A stretch of 32,000 nucleotides of DNA from Gammaproteobacteria bacterium (GCA_965279305.1 OZ257143.1:1410001-1442000); one strand, 5' to 3'; numbered from the stretch's first letter, positions 3,863 through 23,595 are shown. Notes: generated from the sequence alone by a model not told the origin. Numbers and translations: made by a program.

Positions 3863-4642
3863 ATGCAAAGTAAGTTTTTTATTACTATCATTTCGTTTTC
3901 TTTATTTTTATTTTCTCCTTTTTTGCGTGCAGAATCACTATTTCAACAAGCTTTACAAAATGGACACATAGAGTTAAAGGGATCAATAGGTGGTGGCTGG
4001 CTGTCGGCTGATGATACTAGTTTGCACGTTACTAATACTGAAACAGATAGACTGACTTTTGATAATGCCGATGCTTTGTTTGTTTCTTTAGGCTTAGCTT
4101 ATGCTTATCCTTTAAATTATCGATTTTGGGAAACGTGGAGATGGTTTCCTGAGATTACGGCAAGTTTTGATGTGACAGAGCAATTTGAAACTACATTAGA
4201 TGGTGATGTTGATTTGTACGGTGCTGATTATCTTTTTCCTGGTTATGATTCTAAAACGGATGTTTCTAATACGAATTTGATGGCAAATTTAAGTTTGGAT
4301 GTTTTGAAGTATAAGGATTTGTCATTTTTTATTATAGGTGGAATAGGAGCTGCATGGACGGATATTTCTTATGCAGAAACACCTGATCCTGGTGTTGATC
4401 GAGGAAATATTACCCTGGATAGTAAAGCCAGTGTTACCTTTGCTATTCAAGTAGGCGGAGGCATAGGTTATCAATTGGCTCCTGATCTGAATGTGACAGT
4501 GACGTATCTTTACACAGATTTGGGATCACCCGAAACCGGTGATATGGGGAAAATAAACGGAATTCCTCATCCTGATGTTGAACCAATAACAATTAATCTA
4601 ATACAGCAGAGTATATTGTTGGGGTTGGAGTATGCATTCTAA
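3863..4642 (+). CDS. Small outer-membrane beta-barrel protein (OmpW/Opa-like OMP_b-brl type), 259 aa
   Basis: Track ORF 3695..4642 overlaps murJ. The in-frame ATG at 3863 gives a Sec signal peptide, MQSKFFITIISFSLFLFSPFLRA|ES. The sequence has alternating amphipathic strands (VTFAIQVGGGIGYQLAPDLNVTVTYLYTDLG) and ends in LLGLEYAF, a terminal aromatic residue typical of a BAM beta-signal. Its stop overlaps the start of the next gene. Confidence 0.75.
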   Translation: MQSKFFITIISFSLFLFSPFLRAESLFQQALQNGHIELKGSIGGGWLSADDTSLHVTNTETDRLTFDNADALFVSLGLAYAYPLNYRFWETWRWFPEITASFDVTEQFETTLDGDVDLYGADYLFPGYDSKTDVSNTNLMANLSLDVLKYKDLSFFIIGGIGAAWTDISYAETPDPGVDRGNITLDSKASVTFAIQVGGGIGYQLAPDLNVTVTYLYTDLGSPETGDMGKINGIPHPDVEPITINLIQQSILLGLEYAF

Positions 4643-20733: not shown

Positions 20734-23595
20734 ATGAAAAAAATAGTATTCTCGTATATTTCTATTTCTTTATCATTATTGATAGGGGTGTATTCGGAGC
20801 TTGCTAGTGCGTCGTATGCCTATGTGGCAAATTCTAATGATAATTCAATTACCTTGTGTACAGATGCTGGCGTAGAGGGGTTGGATGAATGTGGCGATTC
20901 AGGTGCGGGTATGATATTTGATGCTCCCACGGGTATTGCTATTCCCGATACCACATTTAGTGGCAATACCTATGCATATATTACCAATAGGGATGCGGGA
21001 ACTATTTCTCAATGTCAGGTAAATATTGTGGATGGTTCTCTTTCTGATGATTGTAACAATACAGACGATATTTTTTCGTTTCCTATTGGTGTTGCTTTTC
21101 AATCTATCGAAGGAACACTTTATGCTTATGTCACCAATGCGACGATAGGGGATATCACAACTTGCACGGTGAATGCGACAACAGGCGCATTGGAGAATTG
21201 TGAGAATGGAACTATGCCTTTTGGAGCACCCATAGGAATGGCTATTCAAACCATGGGGACTACTGATTATGCTTATATTTCTAACAGTCATGCTGGAACA
21301 ATAACACGATGTTATTTAAATTCAATGACAGGTGTATTGTCAGAATGCCTTGATTCAGGAGTAGGGGCTGCATTTAGTGCGCCCCAAAATATTAGATTTT
21401 TTACTACGGATGATCTTTATGCTTATATAACAGATTCTACTTATTCTACATCGGGAACTGTTTGGCAATGTAATGTGGATGATACCAGTGGTATGTTAAG
21501 TGCTTGTGCAGAGACTGGATCAGATTTTAATCAGCCTATGGGCATTGATTTTAAAACCATAGGTTCTGTCGATTATGCTTATATCACAAACGTTGCAGAT
21601 AATACTTATACGTACTGTGAAGTAACAAGCAGTGGCGAGTTAATTTGTTCTACTAGTTCATCCATTCCTCAGAATAGGCTTGACCCCATGGGGTTGGCTT
21701 ATTTTACTGTTAATGATGTTGATTATATTTATGTTGCTAATCCTGATGTGGGAACCGTTTCGCAATGTCGAATAAATGATAGCGCCGGTAATTTGTATTG
21801 TGTTGACTCGGGTGTGCACGCTCAATTTAATATTCCCTATAGCATTAATTTATATACGGTAGCTTCATCTATTTTTGCACAAGTGGTTGATACGGAGATG
21901 AATGTGGTATGGGTTTGTTCAGTTAACACTACCAGCGGTCAATTTATGGAATGTAGCGAACAAGGTGAAGATATTTTTGTAGCACCAGTAAGCATTGCTG
22001 TGGGGATTGATTCTCATATTAATGTTTATGTTTCTGATACCGACGGTATTATTTGGAGATGTCGCGCTTCGGTTTCAGATGGCTCATTTAGTGATTGTGA
22101 GTCAGCAGGCGATTATCCGACTTATGGCTTTAATAATCCTAGGGGCTTATCCGTTCAGGATTTTGGAATTTATCGTTATGTTTATATCGTTAATTATCAG
22201 CCTAGTTCCTCATCAGCAGCTCAAATAGTTCAATGCGCCACCGATTCTTCTACGGGGTTATTTACGAGTTGTGTTGACTCAGGAGCAGGATATGCTCTTG
22301 CTTACCCTAATGCTATTTCATTTCAAGGAGGCTTTTCAGGTTTAGGAGTCATTGCTTTTCTTCCTGAAACAGGAAGTTTTGGAGGAGATAGCTATGTACA
22401 TAAGTTTTCGGTTTCCTCGACAACAGGTCAGTTTACCGCTTTAAGTGCTGATAATACGACGATTGATGGAAAATCAGGTATCGCTTTTGCGGTAGCAGGA
22501 TTTACTCAGTATGTTTATTTAACTAATGATGATGATTCAAGTATCTCAAAATGTCCTATGGATATTTATGGGGAGATTGAATATACGAGTTGCGTCACGA
22601 GTATTATTGAATTAAGCACTCCTGTCAGTATTGATATTCAAACAGTGATGTATTATACAGGGGCTTATATTGTCTATAGTGATGGCAGTATTCAAGGTTG
22701 CAGAATTGAGCCTGCTGGTGGTTCGTTTGCTGAGTGTCAGGATATGGGTACGGGTTTAATTTTTAATACTCCTAGTGATATTACTTTACAAATAGTTGAT
22801 GAAAATAATTATGCTTATATTACTGATGGTGCGCTTGGAACTGTTACGCGCTGCTTGCAAGATCCAGTAACAGGGTTTTTGACTGCTTGCACCCCTTCTG
22901 GAGTTGGCGCTATTTTTGGTACTCCTACAAGCATTGCATTTGATACTCTAGATGATACGATTTATGCTTACATTGTTAATACAGCAGATAATATAACCTA
23001 TCAATGTGAATTAGATTCTTCAGGTTTGTTTGTAACAGATTCTTGTGCTGATATTGCCACTGTTTTTGATGCGCCTTTAGGTTTAAGTATTAATAATAAT
23101 TTTGCCTATATCGCTGATGCTGGCAATAATCGAATTATTATGTGTGAACTCGGTGGTGAGGGTGCATTAGGATCATGCGCGGATTCTGGTGCGGGAGATA
23201 TATTTTTAGAACCTGCTGATATTACTTTTTTTACCGATGCGAGTGAAAATTTAAATGCTTATATTACCAATGCAGAAAGTAATTGCAGCTTCACCAATGT
23301 AAAAAAAGATACCTGTGACACTACAGCCGTTAATTCTGTTACCTATTGCTCTGTAGATGCTGAGACAGGTTTATTTAGCGATTGTAATGATTCTTCTTTA
23401 GGCTCTGTATTTAAGCAACCTACTGGGATCGCATTGGGTTCCTCCTATGCTTATGTCAGCAATTCTGATTTAGGATACAATCGAATTTCACGTTGTAGCT
23501 TAAATTCAGATGGCAGTTTTGATGCTTGTGGAGATTCTGGAGCAGGGACTTCCTATTTTGCTCAGCCATTTGGTATTACTTTTTTTACTCCATAA
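20734..23595 (+). CDS. Paralog 6 (953 aa): same family, short form without the N-terminal domain
   Basis: Starts 19 nt after the paralog 5 stop, with an AAGGA Shine-Dalgarno sequence. Signal peptide MKKIVFSYISISLSLLIGVYSELASA|SY. There are 18 units, ending ...FGITFFTP. It is followed by a hairpin terminator. Confidence 0.9.
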   Translation: MKKIVFSYISISLSLLIGVYSELASASYAYVANSNDNSITLCTDAGVEGLDECGDSGAGMIFDAPTGIAIPDTTFSGNTYAYITNRDAGTISQCQVNIVDGSLSDDCNNTDDIFSFPIGVAFQSIEGTLYAYVTNATIGDITTCTVNATTGALENCENGTMPFGAPIGMAIQTMGTTDYAYISNSHAGTITRCYLNSMTGVLSECLDSGVGAAFSAPQNIRFFTTDDLYAYITDSTYSTSGTVWQCNVDDTSGMLSACAETGSDFNQPMGIDFKTIGSVDYAYITNVADNTYTYCEVTSSGELICSTSSSIPQNRLDPMGLAYFTVNDVDYIYVANPDVGTVSQCRINDSAGNLYCVDSGVHAQFNIPYSINLYTVASSIFAQVVDTEMNVVWVCSVNTTSGQFMECSEQGEDIFVAPVSIAVGIDSHINVYVSDTDGIIWRCRASVSDGSFSDCESAGDYPTYGFNNPRGLSVQDFGIYRYVYIVNYQPSSSSAAQIVQCATDSSTGLFTSCVDSGAGYALAYPNAISFQGGFSGLGVIAFLPETGSFGGDSYVHKFSVSSTTGQFTALSADNTTIDGKSGIAFAVAGFTQYVYLTNDDDSSISKCPMDIYGEIEYTSCVTSIIELSTPVSIDIQTVMYYTGAYIVYSDGSIQGCRIEPAGGSFAECQDMGTGLIFNTPSDITLQIVDENNYAYITDGALGTVTRCLQDPVTGFLTACTPSGVGAIFGTPTSIAFDTLDDTIYAYIVNTADNITYQCELDSSGLFVTDSCADIATVFDAPLGLSINNNFAYIADAGNNRIIMCELGGEGALGSCADSGAGDIFLEPADITFFTDASENLNAYITNAESNCSFTNVKKDTCDTTAVNSVTYCSVDAETGLFSDCNDSSLGSVFKQPTGIALGSSYAYVSNSDLGYNRISRCSLNSDGSFDACGDSGAGTSYFAQPFGITFFTP
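20812..23592 (+). repeat. Intragenic array of 18 blade-like units in paralog 6; unit 11 lacks cysteines
   Basis: Hand-delimited from SYAYVANSNDNSITLC... to ...YAYVSNSDLGYNRISRCSLNSDGSFDACGDSGAGTSYFAQPFGITFFTP. Confidence 0.8.

Follow-up and report, generated by a model that had tools for sequence, protein, structure and literature searches.

What are the six giant, adjacent genes that fill most of positions 3863-23595 in this 32,000-nucleotide stretch (the window) of a gammaproteobacterial genome, to which known proteins are their products related, and what could those products do? A sequence-only reading had described a small outer-membrane beta-barrel gene followed by six paralogs for exported, cysteine-paired propeller-repeat proteins, and had suggested a host-interaction family of adhesin or lectin type under diversifying pressure.

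Genes, repeats and export signals

ORF calling reproduced this layout. The barrel gene (259 aa) and six end-to-end paralogs, p1-p6, all lie on the plus strand at the coordinates given by that reading (Table 1), and the paralogs align with each other over their full length, with identities of 30-43% (E 1e-100 to 0). In the public annotation p1 starts at the second ATG (4647), which gives 1057 aa, and a T9 tract (4663-4671) lies within its signal-peptide codons. The mechanically called p5 ORF starts at GTG 17784 (976 aa). The ATG at 17838 is favoured because it follows an AAGGA ribosome-binding site (17828-17832) and produces a p6-like N-terminus; it yields the length of ~958 aa originally estimated.

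Table 1. Genes, predicted p3 domains and candidate expression signals, in window coordinates.
Feature	Position	Strand	Details or basis
Small outer-membrane beta-barrel gene	3863..4642	+	259 aa; signal peptide; C-terminal ...LEYAF; PF13505 match
p1	4632..7820	+	1062 aa; signal peptide, Ig-like domain, 18 Cys-paired blades; PF10282 42.7 bits
p2	7903..11097	+	1064 aa
p3	11121..14369	+	1082 aa; only copy modelled full-length
p4	14437..17742	+	1101 aa; PF10282 32.2 bits
p5	17838..20714	+	958 aa from ATG 17838; short form without Ig-like domain
p6	20734..23595	+	953 aa; short form without Ig-like domain
p3 Ig-like beta-sandwich domain, residues ~45-158	11253..11594	+	DSSP strands at 47-158
p3 predicted propeller 1, residues 159-464, blades 1-6	11595..12512	+	strand register
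p3 predicted propeller 2, residues 465-770, blades 7-12	12513..13430	+	strand register
p3 predicted propeller 3, residues 771-1082, blades 13-18	13431..14366	+	modelled alone
Promoter-like site TTGACA-16-TATACT, p1-p2 gap	7844..7871	+	11/12; consensus match only
Promoter-like site TTGACT-16-CATAAT, p3-p4 gap	14380..14407	+	consensus match
Promoter-like site TTGACA-16-TACACT, p4-p5 gap	17754..17781	+	consensus match
Hairpin then U-rich tract, directly 3' of p6	23605..23652	+	RNA fold

Promoter-like sites were found in the gaps listed in Table 1, and those between p3 and p4 and between p4 and p5 also have TTTGAC(A/T)TTTGAG in common. Judged from the sequence, the six paralogs probably have separate promoters. 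The hairpin after p6 (-24.6 kcal/mol, z = -5.7, with none of 200 shuffles equally stable) and its U-rich tract probably constitute an intrinsic terminator that closes the array.

Each paralog contains 18 repeat units of ~50 aa. The units are marked by a conserved Cys pair whose two residues are spaced 10-16 apart (mostly 11-13). The initial claim that every unit has this pair is correct for p1-p4, with 18 pairs each; p5 and p6 have 17 paired units and one that is cysteine-free. In an alignment of 17 family members 29 cysteines are invariant, and the invariant columns as a whole (Y, C, G and P, plus a few of F, N, A and L) fall at repeat positions. We read these columns as structural, and there is no conserved polar catalytic residue among them. 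Behind the second Cys, the presence or absence of a DSG motif repeats with a period of six units (++-+-- / ++(+)+-- / ++-+++), in line with modules of six blades.

All six paralogs carry a Sec-type signal peptide and none has a lipobox. Consistent with the sequence-only reading, which had seen no further hydrophobic helices, the signal peptide is the sole hydrophobic stretch in each protein; 19-residue windows reaching Kyte-Doolittle 1.6 occur singly in the signal peptides of p1, p2 and the barrel, and nowhere else in the six paralogs. The mature proteins of ~100 kDa are very acidic, with only 1.3-2.3% K+R, and their C-termini are formed by the last propeller strand (...GIAF(L/F)(N/T)P). Pfam and NCBIfam scans also agreed with that reading: no autotransporter barrel, two-partner secretion, RHS, RTX, sortase or PEP-CTERM match was obtained at E <= 1 for any paralog, and no catalytic, toxin or anchor module was found.

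Predicted fold and family relationships

AlphaFold2 modelled full-length p3 as an all-beta protein in which each unit contributes four strands (pLDDT 84.6, pTM 0.65). When residues 771-1082 were modelled alone (312 residues), five of five models gave a compact domain of 24 strands (pLDDT 91.5, pTM 0.91). Structure prediction, which had been named as a check on the initial proposal, therefore returned a confident and ordered propeller fold. In Foldseek searches this third module superposed best on six-bladed YWTD propellers (TM 0.65-0.72, rmsd 3.2-4.3 A) and worse on seven-bladed YVTN, BtuG and lactonase propellers (TM 0.55-0.62, rmsd 5-8 A). The best E-values were those of 1l0q and 3dsm ('surface layer protein', Bacteroides), at a TM of only 0.58-0.59. 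The 18 units are thus modelled as three propellers of six blades each, the p3 boundaries being set by strand register together with the blades that diverge most (6/7 and 12/13).

A single seven-bladed ring of the PF10282 type was also considered and rejected, because the 24 modelled strands make six blades, six-bladed structures fit better and six Cys pairs are the mode in the family.

The paralogs had been described as almost entirely repeat. This is true of p5 and p6, but p1-p4 possess an N-terminal Ig-like all-beta domain of ~110 aa that had been overlooked. Since p5 and p6 lack it, the domain has no role as a universal anchor. Its matches (choice-of-anchor D, ASH, HYDIN/VesB Ig, Cep192 and TRAPPC13_C) were all sub-threshold, and the NCBIfam model NF012200 choice-of-anchor D was not reached, p3 scoring 25.7 bits against a cut-off of 45.

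At the sequence level, p1 and p4 (Table 1) and p5 (25.1 bits) exceed the 21.7-bit cut-off of PF10282 (Lactonase, 7-bladed); p3 falls below it at 17.9 bits, and p2 and p6 have no match. These matches are partial, extending over 55-80 residues and ~55-75 positions of the 344-position seven-bladed model. The YVTN repeat model TIGR02276 is not reached, with only p4 matching (11.6 bits against 27.85) and a period of ~50 rather than ~40 aa. For PF01436 (NHL), p1 and p6 score 13.9 and 11.2 bits, under the 20-bit cut-off, and a family profile compared with the PDB gave marginal NHL-type matches (E 2e-4 to 1e-2). The YWTD, or LDL-receptor class B, repeat gave no sequence match in Pfam scans, so that the likeness is one of fold only, at 10-16% identity. 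Relatives are annotated at source as 'beta-propeller fold lactonase family protein' and in one case as 'DNA-binding beta-propeller fold protein YncE', and single-propeller relatives also match the SGL and Arylesterase models. In fold the paralogs fall within the known YVTN/lactonase/NHL propeller superfamily; because three of the six copies pass PF10282, theirs is no new class of fold. The suggestion that the proteins match no characterised family accordingly survives for close relatives, none of which is characterised, and fails at the level of the fold.

The cysteine-paired blade had likewise been regarded as a distinctive trait. Instead it occurs across a much wider family: the six-blade module is represented by 837 clusters, mostly single propellers, and the cluster representatives checked in a sample were mostly unnamed or 'hypothetical'. 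Six periodic Cys pairs are present in 85 of 162 homologs, with smaller groups at ~11-13 and 16-18. Other proteins join this propeller to Big_2, FN3 and intimin-type (Ig_Eae) Ig domains. Triple propellers are very rare, and no close counterpart has been solved or characterised. Searching PDB sequences with the paralogs gave no match, and the full-length family was found only in the source genome and a handful of metagenome contigs.

Insertion, divergence and linkage to the barrel gene

The 20-kb array block is a lineage-specific insertion. It sits between murJ and ribF, and in four relatives (MurJ 73-77% identical) murJ is directly followed by ribF. Array genes are 53-86% identical to those of the closest relative, compared with 87-98% for flanking genes. 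Between the window and the related locus L001, identity is 87-98% in the flanks and 55-86% in the array, and dN is 0.013-0.074 in the flanks and 0.08-0.39 in the array, array genes having 3-30 times the dN of flanking genes. Gene-wide dN/dS is 0.15-0.31 in the array and 0.04-0.12 in the flanks, all values being below 1.

Gene content varies as well, the L001 array having a different last gene and that of locus L003 one extra copy. Compared with L001, L003 is more distant from the window by MurJ (85%) and the barrel (51%), and closer by p1 (77%), p2 (92%, compared with 86% to L001 q2) and p3 (93%). The similarity of array genes across relatives is mosaic and tree-incongruent, and breakpoints fall inside genes: p1 and L001 q1 are 79% identical over the first 150 aa and ~50% thereafter. 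Variable positions are scattered across all loops and not concentrated on one face. The array has undergone rapid mosaic diversification. The proposal of diversifying pressure is upheld in so far as divergence is fast, recombination has left a mosaic and gene content varies. It is not demonstrated as positive selection, because the gene-wide dN/dS of the array genes is so low, and relaxed constraint combined with recombination would produce the same divergence picture.

The barrel gene passes PF13505 OMP_b-brl (29.8 bits; cut-off 28.7), and its product has a signal peptide and a terminal ...EYAF. All six barrel homologs match OMP_b-brl (best E 5.8e-11), with identities to the window barrel of 94% in L001 and 51% in L003. 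The barrel stop overlaps or abuts the p1 start. A small barrel gene, either adjoining or with one small gene between, accompanies related propeller genes in six of the eight loci examined (the window, L001, L003, L002, JGI contig 3300050821 and L089). These six differ in how the genes are ordered and in where they lie in the genome, and no adjacent barrel was found at L088 or L090. OMP_b-brl genes are common in these genomes, and L089 has two within 6 kb.

The source bacterium is probably host-associated. An intracellular lifestyle is plausible, given that a gene for a eukaryotic-type kinase lies nearby, that related contigs carry Ank and LepB_N-like genes and that the source contig measures 1.87 Mb.

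Possible roles and known counterparts

As read from their sequences, the paralogs most likely make up a variable repertoire of binding proteins at the cell surface. We tentatively propose, with considerable reserve, that they are disulfide-stabilised and either displayed at the surface or released. Each would be exported by Sec, and the Cys pair of each blade would be oxidised in the periplasm; the pair would span the hairpin between the blade's two outer strands, so that a disulfide would staple the blade. The mature protein would consist of three six-bladed propellers in a row, with a 1+3 'velcro' blade closing every ring and, in the four long copies, the Ig-like domain N-terminal to them. 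It would probably reach the surface or medium already folded via a type II-like route. There the paralogs may bind ligands of the host or the environment without enzymatic activity, as modules of adhesin, lectin or receptor-decoy type; the adhesin or lectin function suggested previously is one that we also infer. The barrel, presumably co-transcribed, may be an outer-membrane partner or anchor and not the translocon, and small barrels of the OMP_b-brl/OmpA class are unlikely exporters of a folded 100-kDa protein. Through duplication, rapid divergence and recombination between lineages, the repertoire would come to differ from strain to strain.

Periplasmic propellers such as E. coli YncE show that export by Sec is not enough to place a protein at the surface. 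Periplasmic YncE-like binding or chaperone-type propellers, placed beside the barrel by coincidental operon packing, would suit a Sec signal with no further sorting signal recognised, the relative named YncE and the barrel-free loci L088 and L090. We nevertheless regard this as improbable: the 3-30-fold faster dN, inter-lineage recombination and copy-number variation are unexpected for periplasmic housekeeping proteins, and the relatives' fusions to Big_2, FN3 and intimin-type domains are typical of surface proteins. A structural surface coat, S-layer-like or an outer-membrane-tethered lattice anchored by the barrel, whose variation would evade immunity, predators or phages, has a somewhat better claim but is still unlikely. 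It would account for the top Foldseek E-values to 1l0q, an archaeal S-layer YVTN propeller, and 3dsm, for the acidic, K+R-poor composition, for the barrel linkage and for the high divergence and copy turnover. However, the TM to both structures is just 0.58-0.59, Pfam and NCBIfam scans revealed neither a known S-layer anchoring motif nor a lattice-forming domain, and six diverged paralogs with probable separate promoters are unlike one abundant lattice subunit.

Less probable than the YncE-like reading is an enzymatic role, in the periplasm or after secretion, as propellers of the lactonase, cycloisomerase, SGL or arylesterase type, the six copies acting on different substrates. The PF10282 scores of p1, p4 and p5, the SGL and Arylesterase matches of single-propeller relatives and the 'lactonase family' names at source point in this direction. 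Against it, the PF10282 matches are short and partial while the modelled module is six-bladed, the invariant columns read as structural and lack a conserved polar catalytic set, and housekeeping enzymes do not usually have three propellers in one chain, an Ig-like domain or near-orthologs that diverge by 45%. Surface receptors that capture nutrients or cofactors and, like BtuG, hand cargo to the adjacent barrel are more doubtful again. BtuG1/2/3 are among the top Foldseek matches (E ~2e-9), an outer-membrane protein gene is linked, and a reduced 1.87-Mb genome may scavenge; yet the match has a TM of only 0.55-0.60 at 8-15% identity, the six-bladed, lipobox-free paralogs differ from BtuG, and the block offers a small OMP_b-brl/OmpA-class barrel and no TonB-dependent transporter gene. 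A reading of the array as repeat DNA that is decaying or without function, its ORFs kept by chance, is scarcely credible in view of six intact ORFs of 953-1101 codons, cysteines and structural residues invariant in 17 homologs, dN/dS of 0.15-0.31, confident AlphaFold2 models and intact arrays conserved in other lineages.

Among known systems, the nearest sequence class to the paralogs is PF10282/TIGR02276 (1L0Q, Methanosarcina S-layer; E. coli YncE), several members of which are exported or surface proteins. Paralog blades have the same Y-[AV]-Y-V-[TS]-[ND] type strands, and 1l0q is the top Foldseek match by E-value, at a TM of only 0.58. In contrast to this class, the paralogs have rings of six blades instead of seven and a period of ~50 instead of ~40 aa; almost all their blades hold a Cys pair, and each chain forms three rings. 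The best geometric superposition of the p3 module is with the YWTD propellers of megalin/LRP2, LRP6, LDLR and nidogen, which are six-bladed, extracellular, non-enzymatic ligand binders arranged in tandem along one chain. YWTD proteins are eukaryotic and share 10-16% identity with the paralogs, which lack the YWTD motif and EGF spacers; to our knowledge YWTD propellers have no intra-blade disulfides. NHL propellers (Thin/TRIM, NHLRC2, PknD sensor domain) are also six-bladed, and their strand pattern 'P.G[IV]A[FV]...Y[VI].[DN]' matches the paralogs, but the domain contexts differ, Pfam NHL scores are sub-threshold and we know of no Cys pair in NHL blades.

Bacteroides BtuG, among the top Foldseek matches, is a surface propeller that cooperates with an adjacently encoded outer-membrane protein. 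It is a seven-bladed lipoprotein capping a 22-strand TonB-dependent transporter, whereas the paralog module is six-bladed, lacks a lipobox and neighbours a small OMP_b-brl barrel. Plasmodium falciparum CyRPA is an extracellular six-bladed propeller with an internal disulfide in five of six blades and a ring closed by its N- and C-terminal strands, and serves as a non-enzymatic scaffold within a host-cell invasion complex (PMC5349852). Unlike the paralogs it has a neuraminidase-type fold, an unrelated sequence and a single propeller, and we regard the likeness as an analogy of design, not homology.

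Gene content and genomic setting of the array

Seven successive ORFs on the + strand fill positions 3863-23595 of the window without interruption: the barrel gene (omp) and six paralogous propeller genes, p1-p6 (see table). The six products align end to end with pairwise identities of 30-43%. Every copy has a Sec-type signal peptide with an A-x-A-like site at its end, no lipobox was found in any of the six, and none contains a second 19-residue stretch at a Kyte-Doolittle value of at least 1.6 beyond the signal peptide. The number of ORFs, their paralogy, the signal peptides and the lack of a lipobox or other hydrophobic stretch had all been described correctly in the sequence-only reading. 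The start of p1 overlaps the barrel stop by 11 nt; the public annotation of p1 (P0008, 1057 aa) uses the second ATG, which leaves a barrel-p1 spacing of 4 nt. For p5 the mechanical ORF start is GTG 17784, and AAGGA at 17828-17832 together with a p6-like N-terminus (MKKV...) point to ATG 17838 as the probable start. G+C is 0.40-0.43 over p1-p4 (4001-17000) and 0.37-0.39 over p5, p6 and the downstream genes (17001-32000). A strong positive GC skew and a negative AT skew flatten past ~24000, where gene orientation turns mixed.

Coordinates of array genes, flanking features and related genes at other loci
Feature	Position	Strand	Product (aa)
Upstream junction stretch	3834-3862		
Barrel (omp)	3863-4642	+	259
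p1	4632-7820	+	1062
p2	7903-11097	+	1064
p3	11121-14369	+	1082
p4	14437-17742	+	1101
p5	17838 (ATG)-20714	+	958
p6	20734-23595	+	953
Downstream junction stretch	23596-23705		
Proline-tailed paralog, first	26777-28393	+	538
Proline-tailed paralog, second	28448-29866	+	472
Eukaryotic-type kinase	29899-31707	+	602
Small gene between propeller and barrel genes, locus L002	13501-13875		124-125
Small gene between propeller and barrel genes, JGI 3300050821 contig	2688-3065		124-125
Extra paralog, locus L003	2255-5407		1050
Lone triple-propeller gene, locus L090	2299-5505		1068

The array is preceded by genes for a GHMP kinase, a DUF498 protein (- strand) and MurJ, and followed by ribF and genes for an MFS transporter (- strand) and a DJ-1/PfpI protein. 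In four contigs of relatives (L004, L005, L006 and L007; MurJ 73-77% identical) ribF follows murJ by no more than 16 nt. Because the two genes are directly adjacent there, we interpret barrel and array as an insertion of ~19.8 kb at an ancestral murJ-ribF junction. In the window this insertion is not marked by a tRNA, a mobile-element gene or integrase, or a long border repeat, and a search of the whole window gave no Rfam family or tRNA.

The three best intergenic promoter-like matches on the + strand coincide with the three longest gaps, before p2, p4 and p5, and two of them share TTTGAC(A/T)TTTGAG; one equally scored match lies inside p3. The gaps between p2 and p3 (23 nt) and between p5 and p6 (19 nt) are short, and p6 is followed by a strong hairpin with a U-rich tail (-24.6 kcal/mol, z = -5.7). 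Four transcription units, omp-p1, p2-p3, p4 and p5-p6, are predicted from these signals.

Repeat structure, fold and database relatives

The cysteine pairs that mark the repeat have a spacing of 10-16 residues (mostly 11-13) and recur with a period of ~50 residues, the unit consensus being YAYVT[DN]xxxxTVxQCxVNxxTGxLSxCxDSGAGxxFxxPxGIAFxT. The long copies p1-p4 contain 18 pairs each, all past residue 150; the short copies p5 and p6 each contain 17 paired units and one cysteine-free unit, located at a 90-94-residue gap between pairs. Alignment of 17 full-length family members revealed 29 invariant cysteines; Tyr, Gly and Pro account for most of the remaining invariant columns, a few others being Phe, Asn, Ala or Leu. 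Between signal peptide and first blade p1-p4 have ~110 additional residues that are missing from p5 and p6. This segment was modelled as all-beta and gave sub-threshold matches only, to choice-of-anchor D, ASH, HYDIN/VesB-type Ig and Cep192; we call it Ig-like, without family assignment. Mature p1-p6 are very acidic, with 7-12% D+E and only 1.3-2.3% K+R, an unusual composition. Such depletion of Lys and Arg would cut the number of trypsin-type cleavage sites and could reflect either protease resistance or a surface-charge requirement.

When the 17-sequence family alignment was supplied to AlphaFold2, full-length p3 was modelled as all beta with four strands per unit (pLDDT 84.6, pTM 0.65). The strand register is A = PxGIAF, B = YAYVTN, C = TVxQC and D = LSxCxD. 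The chain opens with strands B-C-D and closes with strand A (...GIAFLNP), which fits three consecutive rings, each shut by a 1+3 'velcro' blade; ring boundaries in p3 were set at residues 159, 465 and 771. Residues 771-1082 modelled alone, using an alignment of 18 equivalent segments from the window, gave 24 strands with pLDDT 91.5 and pTM 0.91 across all five models. In Foldseek searches of the PDB the best superpositions of this segment were with the six-bladed YWTD propellers of megalin, LRP6, nidogen and LDLR (TM 0.65-0.72, rmsd 3.2-4.3 A), whereas the lowest E-values (~1e-9) belonged to seven-bladed propellers of the YVTN, BtuG and lactonase-like kinds, which fitted more poorly (TM 0.55-0.62, rmsd 5-8 A). 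The full-length p3 model returned generic multi-propeller matches only (LRP2, DDB1), with TM <0.2.

Modules of six are supported by two independent sequence observations. Six periodic Cys pairs were found in 85 of the 162 homologs fetched, with smaller groups at ~11-13 and 16-18, and the DSG motif past the second Cys is blade-specific, following the pattern ++-+-- / ++(+)+-- / ++-+++. Blade-to-blade profile scores (hhalign, 18 x 18) gave no clear period-6 signal, the most degenerate blades being 6, 7 and 11-13. The 'fixed count of 18', which had matched no characterised family in the sequence-only reading, thus resolves as 3 x 6 on the model, the Cys-pair counts and the DSG pattern. The two cysteines of a blade are placed symmetrically around the C-D hairpin turn, making an intra-blade disulfide geometrically plausible. 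An exported protein composed of an Ig-like domain and three six-bladed propellers, with a Cys pair conserved in nearly every blade, is well supported.

The Pfam lactonase model PF10282 (7-bladed propeller; cut-off 21.7 bits) is passed by p1 (42.7), p4 (32.2) and p5 (25.1), in each case by a partial match of 55-80 residues only; p3 scores 17.9, below the cut-off, and p2 and p6 have no match. By blade count the array proteins do not qualify as members of this seven-bladed family. Pfam NHL was sub-threshold, as was the NCBIfam YVTN repeat model (11.6 against a cut-off of 27.85). Searching PDB sequences with p3 alone gave no match, and the family profile gave marginal NHL matches (best E 2e-4). 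A word-indexed search of 5.8 billion proteins returned 22 matches, 15 of them near-full-length family members, located on the 1,869,759-bp source contig and on a small number of Logan and JGI contigs; the copies found on the source contig were the six of the window and no others. An exhaustive search of 1.84 billion cluster representatives yielded 12 full-length representatives (10 with E < 1e-100) and, beyond them, a long tail, with 837 at E < 1e-3 and 486 at E < 1e-10. Among the matches listed, tail proteins are mostly 300-800 aa; they share the Cys-paired blades and some also share the N-terminal domain. Of 20 tail clusters looked up the majority were nameless and three, among them Legionellaceae and Legionellales MAGs, were 'hypothetical protein'; 'YncE' and 'beta-propeller fold lactonase family protein' (Cysteiniphilum halobium) occurred once each, alongside evident mis-annotations. 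Some relatives combine the module in one chain with Big_2, FN3 or intimin-type (Ig_Eae) Ig domains. A literature search for YVTN in Legionella, or propeller families in Legionellales, gave nothing relevant. The fold class itself is known. The cysteine-paired six-blade module occurs widely but is uncharacterised, and what is new in detail is the triple-propeller architecture, the tandem array linked to a barrel, its insertion and its mosaic evolution.

Barrel linkage and evolution of the array

The barrel carries a signal peptide, ends in ...EYAF and passes PF13505 OMP_b-brl at 29.8 bits against a cut-off of 28.7, as do all five homologs tested. Homologs are extremely rare, forming two clusters among 5.8 billion proteins. 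A PF13505 barrel gene stands beside a propeller gene, or one small gene away, in six of the eight loci examined. It is upstream of the propeller genes in the window, L001 and L003, and downstream, past a small gene, in L002 and JGI 3300050821; in L089 a 333-aa barrel lies immediately upstream of a protein that combines one propeller with three Pfam Big_2 domains. L088 and L090 have no barrel neighbour. The six linked loci occupy different genomic sites. That barrel and propeller genes stay together while their order and position change speaks for a functional connection. Since PF13505-class barrels are small, we read this one as a partner or anchor and not a secretion pore. The small genes of L002 and JGI 3300050821 encode products without a Pfam match or a counterpart in the window array; that of L002 is a predicted membrane protein with two hydrophobic helices and a Pro-rich tail.

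L001, the closest relative, served as reference for identity and dN. Its flanking proteins are highly similar to those of the window (MurJ 98%, RibF 87%, MFS 89%, DJ-1 92-93%), as is the barrel (94%), whereas array proteins range from 86% (p2) and 69% (p3) to 55-57% (p1) and 53-55% (p4). The dN values are 0.013-0.074 in the flanks and 0.08-0.39 in the array, and dN/dS 0.04-0.12 and 0.15-0.31. L001 has five array genes. No window gene is orthologous to the last of them, and L001 in turn lacks orthologs of p5 and p6. L003 is more distant by MurJ (85%) and barrel (51%), yet its p1, p2 and p3 (77%, 92% and 93%) are closer to the window than the L001 copies are. Between its barrel gene and its p1 ortholog L003 has an extra paralog, for which neither the window nor L001 has an ortholog (31-53% identity); no two of the three related genomes thus share the same array content.

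Sliding identity revealed breakpoints within genes: p1 matches its L001 counterpart q1 at 79% over the first 150 residues and then at 38-62%, and its L003 counterpart at 56% in the N-terminus and then at 69-88%. Judging from this phylogenetic incongruence and mosaicism, array segments have evidently been exchanged by recombination between lineages. DNA repeats inside the window are merely 60-85% alike, which speaks against recent gene conversion, and the array contains no long identical or inverted DNA repeats and no sign of an invertible switch. A T9 homopolymer at 4663-4671, within the p1 signal-peptide codons just past the barrel stop, has identical length in L001; no simple-sequence tract varied in length, giving no evidence of slipped-strand phase variation. 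As for the diversifying pressure suggested earlier, these data are no proof of positive selection: dN/dS is below 1, and per-position ortholog variability placed variable sites over all loops, not on a single hypervariable face.

Function and comparison with known propellers

We favour, with a little under even confidence, a repertoire of non-enzymatic binding proteins that are displayed on the surface or released and have the small barrel as partner. This reading is based on the lack of catalytic signatures, on the domains that accompany the module in relatives, on the linkage to the barrel and on the way the array has evolved. The rivals are an enzyme, for which the partial lactonase matches might speak and against which the lack of catalytic signatures does, a structural coat, a cofactor receptor, and a periplasmic resident. 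A Dot/Icm-type effector was rejected, as Sec signal peptides and ~18 conserved Cys pairs would argue for periplasmic folding, and so was a polymorphic toxin, the array having no toxin or immunity module. A more specific version of the binding repertoire seems unlikely as a whole: an undescribed surface-display and variation system in which the barrel, as a dedicated OmpA-like anchor, would hold a recombining, strain-specific repertoire of disulfide-stabilised triple-propeller receptors, and these would determine attachment to host cell or host species in a lineage of host-associated Gammaproteobacteria.

The intracellular lifestyle proposed earlier is no more than plausible. Among GTDB species representatives, MurJ identity does not exceed 54%, and the best named relatives in the protein search (at most 56%) are scattered over Gammaproteobacteria; Legionella, Coxiella and Rickettsiella accordingly lack support as source genera. 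The product of the kinase gene at 29899-31707 (602 aa) combines a eukaryotic-type Ser/Thr/Tyr kinase domain (Pkinase E 6e-39) with a Pro/Ser-rich C-terminus; its N-terminal 270 residues are leucine-rich-repeat-like by eye, without Pfam support (LRR_1 E 0.93). Preceding it are adjacent paralogs (24% identity, E 5e-17) with proline-rich tails and no Pfam family, which look like a second, smaller lineage-specific family and are possibly translocated effectors. Ankyrin-repeat genes adjoin murJ in relatives, and a LepB_N-like gene lies beside a family member in L088. Together with the small source contig (1,869,759 bp), these genes favour host association. L090 and L001 derive from one sequencing run, and the lone L090 gene, which neighbours a HicAB toxin-antitoxin pair, belongs either to another locus of the L001 organism or to a different organism.

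If the binding reading is right, a single variable family of exported binding proteins takes up ~1% of a 1.87-Mb genome (19.7 kb of 1,869,759 bp) and would be a prime candidate for determinants of host contact and host range in an uncultured lineage without close named relatives. The propeller superfamily would gain a defined new architecture, and several hundred 'hypothetical' cysteine-paired six-blade proteins of Legionellales-like and other genomes a name and a structural model. The recurrent barrel pairing offers a concrete, testable hypothesis for how large folded proteins are held at the Gram-negative surface. Were the proteins periplasmic or enzymatic, the finding would shrink to a lineage-specific expansion of a known fold.

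Among known systems, the YWTD propeller is nearest to the array module in geometry, and the YVTN/lactonase/NHL class is nearest to the array proteins in sequence. The nearest analogue in design is Plasmodium CyRPA, a six-bladed propeller of an invasion complex in which five of the six blades contain a single disulfide each (PMC5349852).
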